In this document: piece by piece, positions 2,621-31,730 of the stretch
Numbering within the stretch: the first letter of the stretch is position 1
How the letters are laid out: each line of letters begins with the position of its first letter
Origin: a virus
Lineage: Duplodnaviria > Heunggongvirae > Uroviricota > Caudoviricetes
DNA: 35,636 nt
Virus record (IMG/VR): IMGVR_UViG_2718218358_000004
Strand: one strand, 5' to 3'
The notes under the pieces: model-generated
Databases searched by the model: none
What the model saw: the letters and a program-made list of their open reading frames with translations, nothing else
Told to the model about the DNA's origin: nothing
Program-made: the position numbers and the translations under genes

Positions 2621-2732
2621 AACTGAAGTTGCCCTGAAAATGAAATTTTTTTGCACAACCGCAGAACTTTTCCGCAGGGCATCAGTCTTAATTAATGCCA
2701 CTGCTTTTCTTTGATGTCCCCATTTTGTGGAG

Positions 2733-2776
2733 CCCATCAACCCCGCCATTTCGGTTCAAGGTTGATGGGTTTTTTG
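2733..2776 (+). terminator. putative rho-independent terminator downstream of ybjL
   Basis: 10-bp stem cccatcaacc (2733-2742) / ggttgatggg (2760-2769) followed by TTTTTT (2770-2775). Confidence 0.5.
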
Positions 2777-2855
2777 TTGTCTGAAATTTAAGCTATTTAA
2801 AATCATGATGTTAGAAGCACTGTTTTTTAATGATGGCGACAAATTGGCGGCAGAG

Positions 2856-10144: not shown

Positions 10145-10717
10145 TCAGGGGGATTCACTGCTCTTATTTGCCGGAAATTTTCTATAAATGGTAGAAACGC
10201 CCACATCAAAAATCAGTGCAATACGCTGTCTTGATTCTCCGGCCTCTAGTAAACGTCCAATCTGTGCCCACTGTTCGGTGGTCAACTTAGGGCGGCGTCC
10301 ACCTACTCTGCCTTTGTCGCGAGCTGCAGCAATCCCCGCCCTGGTACGTTCAACTATCAGTTCGCGTTCCATTTCAGCCAGGGCACCCATGACATGAAAA
10401 AAGAAACGGCCCATTGGGGTACTGGTATCAATACTGTCAGTCAGGCTTCTGAAATTCACACCACGCTGGCGTAACTCTTCTATCAGCGTAACAAGATGCC
10501 GCATACTGCGCCCCAACCTGTCCAGCTTCCAGACAACCAGCGTGTCTCCTGCCGATAGTGTCCTGAGCAGTTTTTTCAGCCCCGGTCTGTCGGACTTAGT
10601 GCCGCTGATTTTATCCTCAAAAATCCGCTCACATCCCGCGCAGTTCAGCGCACTACGTTGCAAATCGGTGTTCTGGTCATTTGTTGACACGCGTACATAG
10701 CCAATAAGCATGATCAT
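10145..10717 (-). CDS. serine DNA invertase (Hin/Gin/Cin/Pin family)
   Basis: 190-aa ORF; N-terminus GYVRVSTNDQ with catalytic Ser, LVVWKLDRLGRS, C-terminal HTH GVSTIYRKF; near-identical in pattern to Hin/Pin as remembered. Confidence 0.9.
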   Translation of the reverse strand: MIMLIGYVRVSTNDQNTDLQRSALNCAGCERIFEDKISGTKSDRPGLKKLLRTLSAGDTLVVWKLDRLGRSMRHLVTLIEELRQRGVNFRSLTDSIDTSTPMGRFFFHVMGALAEMERELIVERTRAGIAAARDKGRVGGRRPKLTTEQWAQIGRLLEAGESRQRIALIFDVGVSTIYRKFPANKSSESP

Positions 10718-10766
10718 CTCCTTGAATAAAAATCGGGGATGATGCCAGTTAGTCGTAATAGCTGCA

Positions 10767-10792
10767 TTTTCTTAAACGTTGGTTTGGGAGAA
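10767..10792. other. invertase crossover site (hix/gix/cix-like), right
   Basis: TTTTCTTAAACGTTGGTTTGGGAGAA; inverted copy of the site at 12615-12640 sharing the 12-bp half-site TTCTCCCAAACC. Confidence 0.55.
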
Positions 10793-11260
10793 GGTTCAGC
10801 ATTACCTGTTGGTGCGCCTGTTCCGTGGCCTTCAGAGACACCTCCAACAGGCTGGCTGAAATGCAACGGGGCGGCTTTTTCTGCTGAAGAATACCCGGAA
10901 CTGGCAAAGGCTTACCCGACAAATAAATTGCCTGATTTACGAGGTGAATTTATTCGTGGCTGGGATGATGGGCGCGGTATTGATGCAGGACGTGCTTTAT
11001 TGAGCCTTCAGGCTGGGATGCTGGAAAAGCACCGTCATATTGTTGTTGCCAATGATGGTTACGACACAAAAGATGAATGGGAACTGGCTACGATTTTCAA
11101 AAAGACATACACACAAGGACGGGGACTTGATGCCACAAATACAGGAGGGAGTCTGATCCCATCACCGACACTTCATTCACGAGGGAGTATCGGTAATACT
11201 GGCGGGAGTGAAACCCGTCCACGAAATATTGCATTTAACTTTATCGTGAGGGCTGCATAA
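10780..11260 (+). CDS. alternative tail-fibre C-terminal segment (currently not fused to H)
   Basis: Open frame from the crossover site; encodes GLGE motif at the crossover identical to that in H (aa GLLAYLGLGE); the upstream Met at 10739 in the ORF track is probably not a real start. Confidence 0.65.
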
Positions 11261-11862
11261 TGGATAACGCCGTATTAAATAGCGAGCTTATTGCCACGAA
11301 GGCGGGGAATATTACCGTCTATAACTATGATGGTGAAACTCGGGAATATATTTCCACTTCAAATGAATATCTTGCCATTGGTGTCGGTATCCCTGCATAT
11401 TCCTGTTTAGATGCCCCTGGCACACATAAGGCGGGTTATGCTATCTGCCGTTCGATGGATTTAAACTCATGGGAATATGTGCCAGACCATCGCGGTGAAA
11501 TCGTTTTTAGCACCAAAACAGGGGAATCAAAAGAAATCACAGCTCCGGGTGATTACCCTGATAATACAACCACTATCGCCCCGTTAACGCCATACGATAA
11601 ATGGGATGGTGAGAAATGGGCGACGGATACCGAGGCACAGCACGGCGCAGCAGTAGATGCAGCAGAAGCACAGCGCCAGTCGCTGATTGATACTGCAATG
11701 GCCTCCATCAGTCTGATTCAGCTGAAATTGCAGGCCGGACGTAAACTGACGCAGGCAGAAACAACCCGCCTTAACGCTGTGCTGGATTACATTGACGCGG
11801 TGACGGCAACAGATACCAGCACCGCGCCGGATGTCATCTGGCCTGAACTGCCGGAGGCGTAG
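11260..11862 (+). CDS. alternative tail-fibre assembly protein (Tfa')
   Basis: 200-aa ORF with conserved Tfa C-terminal motif (LDYIDAV...TS.APD..WPE.P); 3' ends overlap the active tfa gene convergently. Confidence 0.75.
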   Translation: MDNAVLNSELIATKAGNITVYNYDGETREYISTSNEYLAIGVGIPAYSCLDAPGTHKAGYAICRSMDLNSWEYVPDHRGEIVFSTKTGESKEITAPGDYPDNTTTIAPLTPYDKWDGEKWATDTEAQHGAAVDAAEAQRQSLIDTAMASISLIQLKLQAGRKLTQAETTRLNAVLDYIDAVTATDTSTAPDVIWPELPEA

Positions 11863-12277
11863 GCCATTCAATATCTGGCGCACCGGAAGTATCAACCAGC
11901 TCCAGTGCGTCCAGATAATCCAGCCACAAATTATATTGCGCCAGTTCCTCATCTTTCAGACGACCAATAGCGGCTTTACCGGGCCATTGCTTACTGTTCA
12001 TGTGTTCGTTGGCCTGATTAAGCAATAATTGTCTTTCTGATTCTGCCTGTTGAATAAGTTCTTCATGTGATGGTTGAGGTATTTCAGCCCATGTGGGAAA
12101 ACCATTTACCCCTGCAACTCGGATTTTCCCTTGTGGCGGTTCCGCCATATATTTTACAGAAATGTTATCAGGAATATCTAATGCATCAGCGGGCCATGTT
12201 CCATTTACTTCATAAGTATTTTTTAAATTAACAGCATAAAATGCATTTTCCGAAGGGGAATAAATATATTGATTCAT
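11834..12277 (-). CDS. G: tail-fibre assembly protein
   Basis: 147-aa ORF immediately downstream of H with conserved Tfa C-terminal motif. Confidence 0.8.
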   Translation of the reverse strand: MNQYIYSPSENAFYAVNLKNTYEVNGTWPADALDIPDNISVKYMAEPPQGKIRVAGVNGFPTWAEIPQPSHEELIQQAESERQLLLNQANEHMNSKQWPGKAAIGRLKDEELAQYNLWLDYLDALELVDTSGAPDIEWPTPPAVQAR

Positions 12278-19413: not shown

Positions 19414-20064
19414 TCAGCGGCTGTCATTGCGCAGTCTGCGCTCCAGCTGCTGTTTGTCTTTTTTCACGCCACAGCGGGGATCGAGCTGTAACGCATGGTT
19501 GAGATGATTAAGGGCGGAAGCCGGATTGCTTTCACTCAGGACAGCGCCAATCGCTTTATGCAGACGCGCCCGTGACTGGTCCGGCATATCCAGACCGTCT
19601 GTCAGCTCCAGCGTCTGCAGCAACAGATCGGCATCAAAGCCGGTGGCGGCAAGCATTGCGCTCTGCGCTGCATCTGCCATTTCCTCTGCCAGCACGGTCT
19701 GCACGTTGCGGTTACCCAGCGGCATCACCCAGCCATGACGCAGGGCATGACGCCCGATCTCCAGCGCCCCGGCATAATCTCCGGCATCAATGCGCCACAG
19801 CATCACGTACATCAGCACATCATCCTGTTGAGCGCCTCCGGCAGCCAGGACGCCCTCCGCCCAGGCGGCATATTTCGGCAGCAGCTCCACCTTTATTTCC
19901 GCTTTTTTCACCGTGGACTGAACGCCCTTGAGACGGCGGCGGTCTTCCGCCAGTTGCAGCAGCATCAGGTCATAGCCCGATGCGTGGCGAACACTGCCGC
20001 CCTCGCGGGCGGCCTGTTCAGCCTGAACGCGCAGGCGATGCTGCCGTGCGGGACTCAGGCTCAT
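19414..20064 (-). CDS. M: terminase endonuclease/small subunit M
   Basis: 216-aa ORF between N and L as in P2. Confidence 0.8.
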   Translation of the reverse strand: MSLSPARQHRLRVQAEQAAREGGSVRHASGYDLMLLQLAEDRRRLKGVQSTVKKAEIKVELLPKYAAWAEGVLAAGGAQQDDVLMYVMLWRIDAGDYAGALEIGRHALRHGWVMPLGNRNVQTVLAEEMADAAQSAMLAATGFDADLLLQTLELTDGLDMPDQSRARLHKAIGAVLSESNPASALNHLNHALQLDPRCGVKKDKQQLERRLRNDSR

Positions 20065-22118: not shown

Positions 22119-23885
22119 ATGAACACCACACTGACACCCGCAGATCTCGATCCCCGTCGGCAGGCCATGCTGCTGTACTTTCAGGGATACCGCGTAGCCC
22201 GCATTGCTGAAATGCTGGGCGAGAAAGTTGCAACCGTTCACAGCTGGAAAAAACGCGATAAGTGGGGTGACTATGGGCCGCTGGATCAGATGCAGCTCAC
22301 CACCGCCGCACGCTACTGCCAGCTCATTATGAAGGAGCACAAAGAAGGGAAAGATTTCAAAGAGATTGACCTGCTGGCGCGCCAGTCGGAACGCCACGCG
22401 CGGATCGGCAAGTTTAACAATGGCGGCAACGAAGCCGACTTAAACCCTAACGTCGCCAACCGCAACAAAGGCCCACGCCGGCAGCCGGAAAAGAACGTTT
22501 TCACCGATGAACAGATTGAGAAGCTGGAAGAAATTTTCCATTCCTCCATGTTCAACTACCAGCGCCACTGGTGGGAAGCCGGAAAAACCAACCGCATCCG
22601 CAACCTGCTGAAGTCACGCCAGATCGGCGCGACCTTTTACTTTGCCCGTGAAGCCCTGATTGACGCCCTGCTTACCGGACGTAACCAGATTTTCCTTTCC
22701 GCCAGTAAGGCACAGGCCCACGTCTTTAAACAGTACATCATCGACTTCGCCAAAGAAGTGGAGGTGGAGCTGAAAGGCGATCCGATGGTGCTTCCCAACG
22801 GGGCCACTCTTTACTTCCTCGGCACCAATGCCCGCACGGCCCAGAGTTACCACGGCAACCTGTATCTGGATGAATATTTCTGGATACCGAAATTCCAGGA
22901 GCTGCGCAAAGTGGCTTCCGGTATGGCTATTCACAAAAAATGGCGACAAACCTATTTTTCCACGCCATCCAGCCTGACACACAGTGCTTATCCGTTCTGG
23001 TCCGGTGCGCTGTTCAACCGAGGGCGCAATAAAGCCGATAAGGTGGACATCGACCTGTCCCACAGCAATCTGGCCCCCGGCCTGCTGTGCGCAGACGGGC
23101 AATATCGCCAGATAGTCACCGTGGAAGATGCGGTGCGCGGCGGCTGCAACCTGTTCGACCTTGACCAGTTGCGCATGGAGTACAGCCCGGACGAATACCA
23201 GAACCTGCTGATGTGCGAGTTTGTGGACGATCTCGCGTCCGTGTTTCCGCTCAGCGAGCTGCAGGCGTGCATGGTGGACAGTTGGGAAGTCTGGACCGAC
23301 TTTCATGCACTGGCCCTTCGCCCGTTTGGGTGGCGCGAAGTGTGGATCGGTTATGACCCGGCAAAAGGTACGCAGAACGGCGACAGCGCCGGATGCGTGG
23401 TGGTGGCACCGCCAGCCGTGCCGGGCGGTAAGTTCCGTATTCTTGAGCGCCACCAGTGGCGCGGTATGGACTTCCGCGCCCAGGCGGACGCCATCAAAAA
23501 ACTGACCGAACAGTACAACGTGACATATATCGGCATCGACTCGACGGGTGTCGGTCACGGGGTTTATGAGAACGTGAAAGCGTTTTTTCCAGCCGTCCGG
23601 GAGTTTGTCTACAACCCCAACGTTAAAAACGCCCTGGTACTCAAGGCCTACGACATTATCAGCCACCGCCGTCTGGAGTTTGACGCCGGGCACACCGACA
23701 TTGCGCAGTCATTCATGGCAATCCGTCGCGCCACCACCGCCAGCGGCAACCGCCCGACCTATGAAGCCAGCCGCAGCGAAGAAGCCAGCCACGCCGATCT
23801 GGCCTGGGCAACGATGCACGCATTGTTTAACGAACCGCTGCAGGGCGAATCCGCCAATACCAGCAATATTGTGGAGATTTTTTGA
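22119..23885 (+). CDS. P: terminase large (ATPase) subunit P
   Basis: 588-aa ORF divergent from O, P2 gpP size and position. Confidence 0.9.
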   Translation: MNTTLTPADLDPRRQAMLLYFQGYRVARIAEMLGEKVATVHSWKKRDKWGDYGPLDQMQLTTAARYCQLIMKEHKEGKDFKEIDLLARQSERHARIGKFNNGGNEADLNPNVANRNKGPRRQPEKNVFTDEQIEKLEEIFHSSMFNYQRHWWEAGKTNRIRNLLKSRQIGATFYFAREALIDALLTGRNQIFLSASKAQAHVFKQYIIDFAKEVEVELKGDPMVLPNGATLYFLGTNARTAQSYHGNLYLDEYFWIPKFQELRKVASGMAIHKKWRQTYFSTPSSLTHSAYPFWSGALFNRGRNKADKVDIDLSHSNLAPGLLCADGQYRQIVTVEDAVRGGCNLFDLDQLRMEYSPDEYQNLLMCEFVDDLASVFPLSELQACMVDSWEVWTDFHALALRPFGWREVWIGYDPAKGTQNGDSAGCVVVAPPAVPGGKFRILERHQWRGMDFRAQADAIKKLTEQYNVTYIGIDSTGVGHGVYENVKAFFPAVREFVYNPNVKNALVLKAYDIISHRRLEFDAGHTDIAQSFMAIRRATTASGNRPTYEASRSEEASHADLAWATMHALFNEPLQGESANTSNIVEIF

Positions 23886-24910
23886 TGGGAAAGAGTAAGA
23901 AAAACCGCGCTGCGGCGACGAATCAGCTCAAGCATAAAAGCCAGACTTCAGCCGAAGCATTCAGCTTCGGTGATCCCGTTCCTGTACTTGACCGCCGCGA
24001 ACTGCTGGACTATGTGGAATGCGTACAGACAGATCGCTGGTATGAGCCTCCTGTCAGCTTTGACGGACTGGCGCGCACCTTCCGCGCTGCCGTGCATCAC
24101 AGTTCACCAATTGCGGTGAAATGCAACATTCTGACCAGCACCTACATCCCTCACCCGCTGCTCAGCCAGCAGGCTTTTTCGCGTTTTGTACAGGACTATC
24201 TGGTTTTTGGTAACGCCTACCTGGAAAAACGCACGAACCGCTTCGGAGAGGTCATCGCTCTTGAGCCTGCGCTGGCAAAATACACCCGACGCGGGTTAGA
24301 CCTAGATACCTACTGGTTTGTGCAATACGGTATGACAACCCAGCCGTATCAGTTCACGAAAGGCAGCATCTTTCATCTGTTGGAACCGGACATCAACCAG
24401 GAGATCTACGGCCTGCCCGGTTATCTTTCTGCCATTCCGTCAGCTCTGCTCAACGAGTCCGCCACGCTGTTCCGCCGCAAGTATTACATTAACGGCAGTC
24501 ATGCAGGCTTCATCATGTACATGACCGATGCTGCGCAGAACCAGGAGGATGTGAACAACCTCCGCAATGCGATGAAAAGCGCCAAAGGACCAGGTAACTT
24601 CCGCAATCTGTTTATGTACTCGCCTAACGGCAAAAAGGACGGACTTCAGATCATCCCATTGTCAGAAGTCGCGGCGAAGGATGAGTTTCTGAATATCAAA
24701 AATGTCAGCCGCGATGACATGATGGCAGTGCATCGTGTGCCACCGCAAATGATGGGGATTATGCCGAATAATGTTGGGGGGTTTGGGGATGTGGAAAAAG
24801 CGAGTTTAGTGTTTGTGAGGAACGAATTAATACCCTTACAGAAAAGGATGCAGGAATTAAATAAATGGCTTGAAGATAATATATTACAATTCAAACCATA
24901 TAAATTTTAA
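23882..24910 (+). CDS. Q: portal protein Q
   Basis: 342-aa ORF overlapping P stop; last ~30 codons are AT-rich. Confidence 0.9.
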   Translation: MMGKSKKNRAAATNQLKHKSQTSAEAFSFGDPVPVLDRRELLDYVECVQTDRWYEPPVSFDGLARTFRAAVHHSSPIAVKCNILTSTYIPHPLLSQQAFSRFVQDYLVFGNAYLEKRTNRFGEVIALEPALAKYTRRGLDLDTYWFVQYGMTTQPYQFTKGSIFHLLEPDINQEIYGLPGYLSAIPSALLNESATLFRRKYYINGSHAGFIMYMTDAAQNQEDVNNLRNAMKSAKGPGNFRNLFMYSPNGKKDGLQIIPLSEVAAKDEFLNIKNVSRDDMMAVHRVPPQMMGIMPNNVGGFGDVEKASLVFVRNELIPLQKRMQELNKWLEDNILQFKPYKF

Positions 24911-24918
24911 CGAAAAAT

Positions 24919-24947
24919 CAGCCTTAGCGTTCATAACGTTAGGGCTG
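24919..24947. terminator. hairpin between convergent Q and RT genes (candidate bidirectional terminator)
   Basis: 13-bp stem (with two G-U pairs on the plus-strand RNA) and 3-nt loop, 24919-24947; U-run follows on the minus-strand transcript. Confidence 0.45.
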
Positions 24948-24951
24948 TTCA

Positions 24952-26898
<1,947 letters not shown>

Positions 26899-26950
26899 TC
26901 AACTTTCTGTTTTCCAGAAGTATTTTGGCTATTTTCGGTGATAGCGCGCG

Positions 26951-26969
26951 CTCGTATCCCCGCCACGCC
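26951..26969 (-). other. candidate cos (cohesive end) site
   Basis: Minus strand reads GGCGTGGCGGGGATACGAGCGCGCGC; first 13 nt match the P2/186 cohesive-end sequence as I remember it (GGCG[A/T]GGCGGGGA), followed by a GCGCGC element also recalled from P2. Confidence 0.45.
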
Positions 26970-27348
26970 TGCCCGCTTTATGCAGTGGTTTTCATGCACA
27001 TGCATGACATGAGCAAAAGCCCGCCAGTTCTGGCGGATCTGAGCAAAGACGATCCTCAATCGATCATGCGATTTCATGCAGCATAGTCATGCACTGTCAA
27101 GGAAGTGAAAATCCGTATCTGAATGGCCACTTGAAAAACGGATCATACGGGTTTACAAAGATGAATGTTCGCTGTGAACGGGAAGCGGAAGTTAACTTTC
27201 AGATAACATAATCCATATGCACGAGAACCTCTAAAATAGAATGGGACACCTAAGCGGGGTACTTACAACGATTCTTTCCATATTCACAGTTAACACTCTG
27301 TTTGGCGTATTTTTATTCAAATAGCAAACACCAATAAAAGGAGTTTCC

Positions 27349-27876: not shown

Positions 27877-28110
27877 TTAATGCAGCCAGCTGTCGTCCTC
27901 CCACACCTTCTGCATAATTTTCATCACTTGTTTTCTTTCTTCATCCAGTTGCAGTCCGGTTAGTTCCACACCGTTAGAGCTACCTTTGCGAATGCGAATT
28001 ACCGTTTTGGGATACAGGGGGCGCAGATTGCGGTAAAGCTCGGATTCAAGTGCGTCCAAGGTAGACTGGCTAATCTTCTGCTCTTTATCGATCATTATTT
28101 CAATGCGCAT
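27877..28110 (-). CDS. DinI-like protein
   Basis: 77 aa from MRIEIM; pattern matches E. coli DinI (MRIEV...LxxELxxR...WExxDxW) as remembered. Confidence 0.7.
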   Translation of the reverse strand: MRIEIMIDKEQKISQSTLDALESELYRNLRPLYPKTVIRIRKGSSNGVELTGLQLDEERKQVMKIMQKVWEDDSWLH

Positions 28111-28120
28111 AAAAGTCACC

Positions 28121-28309
28121 TCAGCTGATGACATCCATTGAGCGGTTGTATTCGTGGCTTCTGATTTTTGCCATGAGTTCATCAGTCAATTCAGAAACCC
28201 ACTGCAGAGCCAGCCCCTTCTCTTCATCACTACACTCACTAGCCGCTACAAGCTTAAGAAAAAAATCAATGCGCTGGAGCTTCAAAGACTCCAAAAAATA
28301 GTCCTGCAT
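28121..28309 (-). CDS. small protein, first gene of LexA-box operon (possible Tum-like antirepressor N-terminal part)
   Basis: 62-aa ORF directly downstream of a LexA box and 10 nt upstream of the DinI-like gene. Confidence 0.45.
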   Translation of the reverse strand: MQDYFLESLKLQRIDFFLKLVAASECSDEEKGLALQWVSELTDELMAKIRSHEYNRSMDVIS

Positions 28310-28351
28310 CTTTCCTCCTATGACACCAAAACAATACTGTATACATAACCA

Positions 28352-28367
28352 CTGTTTATATTTACAG
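28352..28367. promoter_or_regulatory. LexA box (SOS operator)
   Basis: CTGTTTATATTTACAG = CTGT-N8-ACAG consensus, 43 nt upstream of the 62-aa ORF start. Confidence 0.65.
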
Positions 28368-28461: not shown

Positions 28462-30882
28462 TTAATACAGGTTCCGCCACTTATCATCTTCCCTCAGACG
28501 CTGGTTCCGATAGAAGATACGCAGGCCTGCTCCTGACGGAATACTGCCGCCGCGAAGGAGCAAATCGACTTCTTTCTCGCTGCCATCAAATCCCCTGGAC
28601 TTCAGTTCATAGACGAGCTGCTGTCGCTGATGGTCTGTAATTCGCTGTTTGTAGTCTTTACGCCGTTTCGGTTTCACCTGGCGTAACCTTGCAGCCAGTT
28701 CCCGGCGCTCTTTTTTGCTCATACTGTGCAGGTAATCGTGCAACTCCTTGTCATTCATACGGGTAATATCCGTTCTGGAGTCCCCATCAGCTGATTTGTC
28801 TTTCCCTTGTTGGTTCAAATTTTCAGCAAGGGGACAGTTATTGCCACGAGTCCAAGGGGCGCAAGCGCCCTGGTCGGCTGCCGCCTCCTGAACGTCAACG
28901 GCCTTACGAACCATTTTCCACTTCACCGCATGAGTGCAGATCTTGCCCTCTGCAATGGGTGACCAGATGCCATAAATACGAATACCGTGATCGCCATATG
29001 CGGTCGGTTCTTCGTTGATTTCATAAGCAGTTCTGATGAGGTGATATTTGCGGGGAACCAGTACGCCGCCCTGCTTCATGATGTAGGTGGCAAAACAACC
29101 AGCATCAGCAGCAGCCAGGATTGCATCAAGGCGCGGGTTATCCAGTACCGGCGCACCTGCTTTTTTGTCACCCTGTTGCCTTGCCGCCTGACCAGCCAGC
29201 AATCGCAGTTCACGGTAAGCCTGACGCCCCGGAATGCCAAAGAAGCGGAATTGCTGAACACGATGCAGAGACGCCCAAGCATTAACGTATTCAGCGTTAT
29301 CACGCAGGGATTTACCCGTTTCCTTGCTGATCTCCCCAGCCAGACCACGCCCGTCAATGTTCTTACTGATGTATTTCGCGATATAGCTTGTTGGCGTACC
29401 TTTGCGCGGGTTTATCAGCTCAGACTTAAAGCGTGGTCCCGTGTTATTGCCCAGCTCCTCGCGGTCTTCACGGATGGCAAACTTACGCAGTAATGCAGTG
29501 ATGGCGCGGCGGTCTTTTTTACGCATGAAACACATGAGATGCCAGTGCACAGTACCGTCATGATGCGGCTCAGCTACCCGCACGCCATACCAGCGCAACT
29601 CGGCTTTATGCATAGCCTTACGAAATGCAGCAAACATGCCGACCAGATAATCGCTACTTTGTCTTACCGTCGCGTTTGTCCAGGTCGGGTTTGGTCTGCC
29701 GTTATTGAGCGTGGAATGGAAACGCGACGGACAGGTGATAGTGTAGAAAACGGCACAGTCACTGCGCATTTCCGCGATAAGCTCCAGACCTTTAACACAG
29801 GCCATCATCTCATTGCGGCGATGCGCCGGGTTGCTGCTGCTGGCGTTTACCACATCTTCCATATCCAGCGTGTCGCCGTCTTCGTTCACCAGTTCATGAG
29901 AACGAAAAAACTCCAGCGACTTACGGCGCTGCTCACGTTTATGCATCACGGCTTCATAGCTGACATAGGGGGATGCTTTTTTGCTGACCAGGCAGACAGC
30001 ACGCAACTGCTCTTCCCGCCATTCGCAACGCATCTTCCATAATTTCCGATACCACCAGTCGGCACACAACATACGCGCCAGCGAACCCGGGATGAGTTCA
30101 TAGGGCACTGGTTTGCGGCGGTTTCTTTTCCGACGAAGTTTCTCAAACGCAGGCGGGATAACATCCAGACGCAGGGTTTCCGCTGCCACCTTTTCCCATG
30201 TCTTGCGGATTTCTTCTGGCTTAACGTCATCGGTGGCATACAAATCACCACAAGCGTCCTCAAGACACATGCTCATATGCGCTGCTACCAGGGTGGACAG
30301 GCGTTTCACCTGATCCTGGCTCATTTCAGGCAGGATCAGCAGCCCCTCCAGCCCTTGATGGCTTGCCATAAAACGGAAAGAAACAGATAGCTGACTGTCA
30401 CGTACACAATCCAGTCGCTCCAGACATGGCTTAATCGTCTCACGCAAATAGCGGGAATAAGCCTTTGGCCTGCCCAGGCTGCTGAAGTATTCAATACGTT
30501 GCATCAGCGGCTTGCTGATATGGGAAGGCTGGGCGTTTACGTCCGCCAGAATGACCATGTCCGGATTAAAACGCTGCTGCTCATGCGCCAGCTTTGCCCG
30601 GCTAATGAGCTTATCCTGCTCCATTTCGCGCTGGACAGGATCACGGGATTCATTAAAGAAATAACGCTCCCAGACCTGCTCACTCAGTGCCTCGCGGCGC
30701 AGTTGTTCCTGCTCGTTATCGGCAGCGTACAGAGTGATCAGGTTTGAAAGTGCAGACTCCGGCGCAACTTCCGCCGGGTCCAGATAAGGGTTAATGGCCT
30801 TTTTCGAGCCGTTCCATGAAAATGCTGCGGCGGCCTCGTTAAAGCCGCTGCAATTGTTCATATCGTCATGACTCATACACAC
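28462..30882 (-). CDS. A: replication initiation endonuclease A (rolling-circle initiator)
   Basis: 806-aa ORF at P2 gpA position with P2 A-like size; start may be a few codons internal. Confidence 0.85.
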
Positions 30883-31730
30883 ACTCCGTACACGGCAGAA
30901 CTATCCACGCCACGCGAAGGATCAAATCCCAACCAGCAGCTCGGCCCGGAAACAGCAATGATTTCTGTTGCAGATTTACCCTCGCCAGCTGACACGCCGA
31001 TGCTGCGTTTTGCCTTGATATAGTGGTGAGTAAAATTGCGATACAGCGAACGAATCAGGGATGTGTCATTGTTAGAAACAATGACCGGATGTCCTTCTGA
31101 TGACCGATGTTCAAGAATGGATGCCAGGTGATACTGGTCATCTTCAGTGAAACCATCAGTGTGATAGCCGGAAAACGTACCGTCATACGGCGGATCGCAA
31201 TACACCACATCCTCCACCTGCAGCATCGCCAGCGTTTCATCAAAGCTCGCGCAGATAAACGTTGCCCGCTGGGCTTTCTCTGCAAATGCGCGAATTTCTT
31301 TTTCAGGGAAATACGGATTTTTATAATTACCGTAGGGAATGTTGAAATACCCGCTCTTGTTATAGCGACATAAACCACGGTAACCGTGACGATTGAGATA
31401 CAGGAAATATATCGCCTTCATGAAATCAGTAATTTCAGTTGAGTAATTAAACTCCTGTCTTATGTTGTAATAAGCCAGCTCACTGTTTGCTTCCTCAAAT
31501 AAAACTTTGGCACGAGATATAAACGCTTCGCAATCAGCGGCAATCTTTTTATAGAGGTTGATTAAATCAGGATTAATATCCGCAACCAGATAGCTGGGGT
31601 AATCCGTCGCCATCATCACAGCACAAGAACCCGCGAAAGGTTCAACCAGTCGCGGGCCAGCAGGAAGGTATTTTTTCAGTTCGGACATAATGGCGGTTTT
31701 ATTACCCGCCCATTTCAGGATGGTGCTCAT
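30873..31730 (-). CDS. dam: DNA adenine methyltransferase (Dam family)
   Basis: 285 aa from [11 protein letters not shown]; motifs [36 protein letters not shown] closely resemble E. coli Dam as remembered. Confidence 0.85.

Follow-up and report, generated by a model that had tools for sequence, protein, structure and literature searches.

A probable P2/186-type cos site beside retron Ec67 and the limits of its conserved module

The window (the whole stretch analysed, 35,636 nt of Caudoviricetes DNA held as IMG/VR record IMGVR_UViG_2718218358_000004) very probably carries the cos site of an apparently intact prophage of the P2/186 family (Peduoviridae), with retron Ec67 beside it, as judged by homology to annotated phage termini. 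On the flank of cos that leads to gene Q lies retron Ec67 (Eco2), followed by the portal and terminase genes. The call of a cos site with an adjacent retron is correct and was already known: Dodd and Egan (1996) had described the arrangement, and Rousset et al. (2022) the defence hotspot near cos.

Homology to phage termini and the ATACGAG allele

Read on the minus strand, the site consists of CATAAAGCGGGCA, then GGCGTGGCGGGGATACGAG, CGCGCGC and TATCACC, and the 26-mer GGCGTGGCGGGGATACGAGCGCGCGC is present exactly at 26969 to 26944 (Table 1). The string that the initial annotation quoted for the candidate site is exact, and the interval in which it was placed, 26945–26975, covers the cos sequence. 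In RefSeq, the P2 and 186 sequences start at the cohesive end, with nt 1–19 annotated as cosL or cos, and open with GGCGAGGCGGGGAAAGCAC-TGCGCGC (P2) and GGCGTGGCGGGGAAAGCAT-TGCGCGC (186). The right end of each record was joined to its left end, and each joined sequence was set against the window in an ungapped comparison with the first G as anchor. Across the 19-mer, identity is 15/19 with 186 and 14/19 with P2 and with P4; across the core from −36 to +26 (ungapped) it is 49/62 with 186, 46/62 with P2 and 47/62 with P4, and past +26 identity to the three phages is 7–16 of 44, which is background. The claimed 13-nt match to the P2/186 end amounts to 13/13 against the annotated end of 186 and 12/13 against that of P2, and the GCGCGC element said to follow as in P2 is a hexamer found at positions 21–26 in both P2 and 186.

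The elements shared with these termini occur in the same order: TGCAT boxes, the inverted repeat CGCCAGAACTGGCG, TGCATKAAAACC, AAGYGGGC at the nick, the 19-mer and GCGCGC. AAGCGGGC, TGCAT-AAAACC and GCGCGC are common to the window, P2, 186 and P4, and the invariant parts of the core are TGCAT-AAAACC, AAG-GGGC and GCGCGC, the last of these being invariant across P2, 186, P4 and Salmonella phage SEN8 (see below). A 55-bp conserved cos core (Ziermann and Calendar, 1990) is cited in PMC5694545. The 19-mer of the window is homologous to the family pattern GGCG(A/T)GGCGGGGAAAGCA(C/T) and differs from P2 and 186 at positions 14, 16, 17 and 19, that is, at four of its last six positions, and in addition at position 20; the window reads ATACGAG-C where P2, 186 and P4 read AAAGCAT-T or AAAGCAC-T. 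Alignment with the proper P2 and 186 termini, proposed as a check by the initial annotation, thus found similarity, and the reading of the sequence as a cos site is upheld by homology to the P2, 186 and P4 termini over the 19-mer, GCGCGC and about 127 bp on the right-end side.

The same allele stands at the start of the record of phage SEN8 (Felsduovirus), which opens with an identical 26-mer, has nt 1–19 annotated as "putative cos site" (19/19 identity) and closes with 125 nt that are 90% identical to window positions 27094–26970. SEN8 was plaque-purified and CsCl-banded and forms plaques, and its paper names ggcgtggcggggatacgag as cos, by annotation. Like the window, SEN8 carries cargo between cos and Q; its cargo consists of a hypothetical gene and an HNH endonuclease with no retron, and from +27 onwards the SEN8 sequence departs from that of the window. 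When the literature was searched for the exact 19-mer, the SEN8 announcement was the sole result, and no experimental determination of ends for the ATACGAG allele was found; among phage records, SEN8 is likewise the only one whose ends coincide with an ATACGAG cos, which there is an annotation call. Phage Cartapus was considered as evidence on the terminus and rejected: its record breaks off within the module at a point that bears no relation to the nicks, apparently where the assembly happened to start.

A pattern scan of IMG/VR yielded at least 120 loci, which together with the reference loci and the window make at least 127 cos matches. Among those listed, 41 of 127 have the ATACGAG allele, and every ATACGAG locus from IMG/VR that could be classified is P2-like (33/33, among the matches listed); by these sequence matches, the ATACGAG 19-mer is a common allele among P2-like elements. 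The IMG/VR matches listed (L011–L130) fall into discrete alleles of the cos 19-mer, namely AAAGCAC, AAAGCAT, ATACGAG, ATAGCAT, AGAGCAT and others. None of the P4-like (psu) loci has ATACGAG, and AGAGCAT is P4-like in 5/5 loci, a small sample among the IMG/VR matches listed; the alleles may hint at helper/satellite compatibility groups, or may reflect sampling noise.

The prophage and the cargo on either side of cos

From ogr to int the genes of the window follow the complete P2-like order, with full-length ORFs for packaging, head, tail, lysis, replication and immunity and a Dam methylase gene at 30873–31730. The cos site lies between Q and A, the canonical position; in P2 and 186, too, it has the portal gene on one side and the replication-gene end of the genome on the other. 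The cognate gpM and gpP genes are intact.

Table 1. Features of the cos region and the surrounding prophage in the window.
Feature	Position	Strand	Basis or remark
Predicted 19-nt cohesive end, 5'-GGCGTGGCGGGGATACGAG	26951–26969	−	Homology to 186, P2 and SEN8 cos
CGCGCGC element just past the left nick	26944–26950	−	Conservation stops here, before the cargo junction
Right-end half of the cos module, presumed terminase recognition region	26970–27096	−	Conserved from −127 to −1
(T)GCATG(A) boxes, five	27087–27093, 27074–27080, 27064–27069, overlapping pair 26992–27007	−	In the cos module
Conserved inverted repeat CCGCCAGAACTGGCGG, terminator-like on the minus strand	27020–27037	−	Terminator scan
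Retron Ec67 msr-msd, approximate ends	26746–26884	−	a1/a2 inverted repeats at 26868–26880 and 26750–26762
Retron Ec67 (Eco2) RT-nuclease	24952–26712	−	586 aa plus stop (ORF 26712 to 24955)
13-bp-stem hairpin, likely terminator	24919–24947	.	Between the convergent RT and Q stop codons
Portal gene (P2 Q/186 W homologue)	23885–24910	+	Pfam Phage_portal, E = 6e-18; RefSeq, identical stretch
Terminase large subunit (gpP homologue), 588 aa	22119–23885	+	Pfam Terminase_5, Terminase_6N, Terminase_6C
Terminase small subunit (gpM homologue)	19414–20064	−	Pfam Phage_term_smal, E = 2e-40
Replication gene A homologue	28462–30876	−	Pfam Phage_GPA, E = 4e-127
Acidic 111-aa ORF, variable right-end segment	27349–27684	+	pI 4.05; 26 D+E vs. 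7 K+R
LexA-boxed operon	27877–28367	−	LexA box 28352–28367; 62-aa ORF 28309 to 28121; DinI-like gene 28110 to 27877
Tail-fibre and tail-fibre-assembly ORFs	10739–11862; 11834–12277	+; −	Opposed

Three features away from cos were also recorded. The tail-fibre region of CP101920, which in RefSeq is the closest match over the full length, contains an IS66 insertion that the window lacks. In the window itself, an ORF for a Gin/Cin-type recombinase (10145–10717, minus strand) adjoins the opposed fibre ORFs, and the stretch 10145–12277 looks like an invertible host-range segment. The sRNA RybB (2700–2778, plus strand; Rfam, 105 bits) lies in the host flank by the ogr end of the prophage, a location that presumably corresponds to the position reported for the Ec67 element, 19 min on the map; the second att site falls beyond the end of the window.

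The retron that the initial annotation had placed between cos and Q was found there, its msr/msd and RT running from 26884 to 24952 between the cos 26-mer and Q. The RT-nuclease is 100% identical over residues 1–586 to PDB entries 9i2f and 9lm3 ("Retron Ec67 protein"), and production of msDNA-Ec67 and anti-phage activity are described in PMC12916289. The 13-nt a1 and a2 arms are 92% complementary, and the GGCAGA that follows a1 corresponds to the CAGA branch context given for Ec67 in PMC6868368. No retron ncRNA family scored above the gathering threshold in Rfam, where the RybB of the host flank was the sole match, so the msr/msd call rests on the inverted repeat together with the identity of the RT. 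RefSeq (PGAP) gives the RT as 646 aa (24952–26892), extending over msr/msd, where the solved protein has 586 aa and starts at 26712; the longer form is probably an artefact.

The retron segment (26943 to 24911) has a GC content of 34%, compared with 55% for the cos module and 54% for genes P and Q, and the cassette starts 1–3 bases after the last conserved base of the module. From +27 to the Q terminator P2 and 186 have about 160 bp of phage DNA, in place of which the window has this 2-kb cassette. A σ70 promoter scan found fewer promoter-like sites than in shuffled sequences and no convincing retron promoter. The hairpin at the other end of the cassette is predicted at −19.9 kcal/mol (z = −4.96; 0/200 shuffles as stable) and is followed by a T-run on the minus strand. 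The portal gene closes with ~45 nt of AT-rich DNA that departs from the sequence of relatives, and the retron cassette may therefore have its left junction within the 3' end of Q.

On the other side of cos, the acidic ORF and the SOS operon assigned to the right end are both present between cos and gene A. The acidic ORF gave no match in Pfam and is named hypothetical or DUF8087 in RefSeq. The LexA box is a perfect consensus (CTGTTTATATTTACAG), the operon is transcribed towards cos, its DinI-like gene matches Pfam DinI (E = 7e-23), and its layout parallels that of the p95/tum SOS operon of 186. The initial annotation's picture of cargo flanking cos on both sides extends to relatives of the window: k-mer clustering among the 35 ATACGAG loci listed divided the Q-side flanks into 28 clusters and the A-side flanks into 21, both sides being hypervariable. 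In E. coli E2348/69, an identical cos module has DprA-type cargo directly after GCGCGCTA. This locus (L005, 2340–4000) shares the right flank of the window too, and its slot between cos and Q holds a DprA-like gene and an unannotated ORF whose translation looks phosphoribosyltransferase-like; the pair resembles the DprA-PRTase defence system of Rousset et al. (2022).

Much of this arrangement is on record. Dodd and Egan (1996, Virology 219:115), as reported in PMC6868368 and PMC7826664, found Ec67 and Ec86 in 186-related prophage DNA, where according to the same two papers they replace about 180 bp between cos and the packaging-gene terminator, and a 34-kb Ec67 element with a Dam methylase is mentioned in PMC7826664. 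The system of Dodd and Egan (1996) shares with the window its retron, its type of prophage, the insertion site between cos and the packaging gene and the Dam methylase, and, as far as the citing papers describe it, no substantive difference between the two was detected. The interval cosL–Q is named as a known hot spot in PMC5694545. Rousset et al. (2022; PMC9122126) describe the gpA–gpQ region adjoining cos as a defence hotspot, retrons included; it resembles the window in having variable anti-phage cargo beside cos with retrons among the systems; gpA–gpQ is treated there as one locus, whereas in the window two cargo compartments are split by a sharp-edged 153-bp cos module.

That the site is a relic, a true homologue of cos in a prophage that is defective or never induced, so that cos is not cut and the retron is a chromosomal passenger, is distinctly unlikely. 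The IS66 insertion in CP101920 indicates that some copies of this prophage are decaying, and the Ec67 prophage is not known to produce phage. However, the ORFs of the window are full length and free of IS66, 136 E. coli records contain the cos module at ≥99% identity (135 when the module was searched alone), and its conservation is sharp-edged, as expected under selection. These observations favour the reading of a cos site in an apparently intact prophage.

Anatomy and edges of the cos module

The conserved packaging module measures 153 bp (26944–27096) and has sharp edges, with variable DNA on either side. Its right-end half, from −127 to −1, is conserved in the 36 unique ATACGAG loci among the matches listed and partly in P2, 186 and P4. 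In those 36 loci, conservation per column is 80–100% from about −127 to +26/28 and 30–50% outside these limits. When similarity to the window was extended outwards by the X-drop procedure, it stopped at +26, +27 or +28 on the Q side in 34/34 listed loci and at 123–127 nt on the A side in 23/34; blastn against phages and against E. coli genomes gave the same module limits, with homology stopping at 27095/27096. Of 5426 complete E. coli genomes, 1263 contain the module and only 14 the block of retron plus cos.

The motif TGCATG is under-represented in the window (16 observed vs. 43.5 expected), and 5 of the 16 occurrences lie inside the 153-bp module (26992–27093). P2, 186 and P4 have conserved TGCAT boxes at the corresponding positions, and on the strength of this conservation the TGCATG boxes are candidate binding sites for the small terminase subunit. 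AAAGCGGGCA adjoins the nick in the right-end half of the module, and CGCCAGAACTGGCG is conserved at −67 to −54 across allele classes; conservation similarly suggests that the inverted repeat at 27020–27037 may take part in terminase binding. The cos site of phage lambda (cosN, cosB, cosQ) provides an analogy, since it likewise combines a staggered nick site with an adjacent, one-sided terminase-binding region. It has no sequence relation to the window and produces 12-nt ends, and the extended region beside the nicks is on the left-end side in lambda, where it serves binding, whereas in the window the conserved region is on the right-end side.

An ORF of 64 aa at 26883–27077 was rejected as a gene: it has no Pfam match, and it spans both the conserved module and the retron-specific junction, which rules out its conservation in relatives. 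RefSeq (PGAP) annotates a 64-aa "hypothetical protein" across cos and the retron junction on an identical stretch; this product is chimeric and probably an artefact.

The presence of a terminator-like hairpin with a T-rich tail (27037 to 27020) on the strand of the DinI-like operon, together with the start of the retron msr about 60 nt past the module, would fit a module that is mainly a transcription boundary, which ends the rightward SOS/DinI operon and insulates the retron promoter while packaging is secondary. Such a main role is highly improbable, because the 186 counterpart of this inverted repeat lacks a T-run and t95b, annotated as the p95 terminator of that phage, is located further upstream, and because it would leave unexplained the invariant 19-mer, the GCGCGC and the TGCATG boxes, all of which are common to the satellite P4. 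Termination is at most an added function of the cos module.

The degenerate P2/186 pattern GGCGWGGCGGGGA-N7-GCGCGC has one match in the 35.6 kb and none in 100 dinucleotide-preserving shuffles (0/100). The 13-mer alone has a single match with 0 mismatches in the window, and with up to 2 mismatches it has 4 matches vs. 1.9 expected, which is not significant, so it is the longer context that carries weight. The chance that a GC-rich sequence merely resembles the P2/186 end without relation to packaging is negligible and was ruled out by the shuffles and the P2/186/P4 alignment: the exact match to 186 is limited to the first 13 nt of the 19-mer and short GC-rich motifs do recur (three 2-mismatch matches to the 13-mer lie elsewhere in the window), but the homology covers 153 bp, the elements follow the order of P2, 186 and P4, the position between Q and A is canonical, and the identical site is annotated in SEN8.

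Predicted packaging and exchange of cargo at cos

After excision and replication, the terminase (gpM and gpP) would recognize the ~127 bp on the right, where the TGCATG boxes and the inverted repeat lie; we infer this step and the nick positions from the biology of P2 and 186, the record annotations and homology. The predicted nicks fall at 26970|26969 on the minus strand and at 26950|26951 on the plus strand, a stagger of 19 bp, and would produce a linear virion DNA whose 5' overhangs are GGCGTGGCGGGGATACGAG and its complement. This DNA would have an estimated length of about 33 kb, given that the window reaches no further than the int stop codon. Retron Ec67 would lie at the left end of the packaged genome, with the msr beginning some 85 nt in and the stop codon of Q about 2,060 nt in, a distance of 187 nt in P2 and 196 nt in 186. 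At the right end would be the acidic ORF and the LexA-controlled DinI-like operon.

The requirement of cos on the Q side is probably no more than 26 nt, given that SEN8 is viable with unrelated DNA from +27 and that relatives conserve nothing past +28. If about 26 nt suffice on the Q side, the DNA beyond would be swappable, and both sides of cos would consequently be a hotspot for cargo, including defence systems. The position of the Q-side breakpoint at +26 to +28 in 34/34 listed loci may mean that exchange is tied to cos, beyond a mere tolerance of insertions; a possible route would be illegitimate or short-homology recombination from terminase-cut ends, with the footprint of terminase setting the edge. 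The retron promoter would lie some 60–85 nt from the left end, and the defence genes might be among the first or the last DNA to enter a newly infected cell. The joint proposal that exchange is tied to cos, that the retron enters first or last and that the cos alleles mark helper/satellite groups is speculative and rather unlikely to hold as a whole.

The one increment over earlier work is the boundary map of the cos module (−127 to +26), drawn from natural variation, which could guide the design of minimal P2-type cosmids. For the prophage, identification of the probable cos site fixes the physical map, in which the retron is left-terminal cargo carried with the phage, and this position would explain both the spread of Ec67 and its place in a known defence hotspot.
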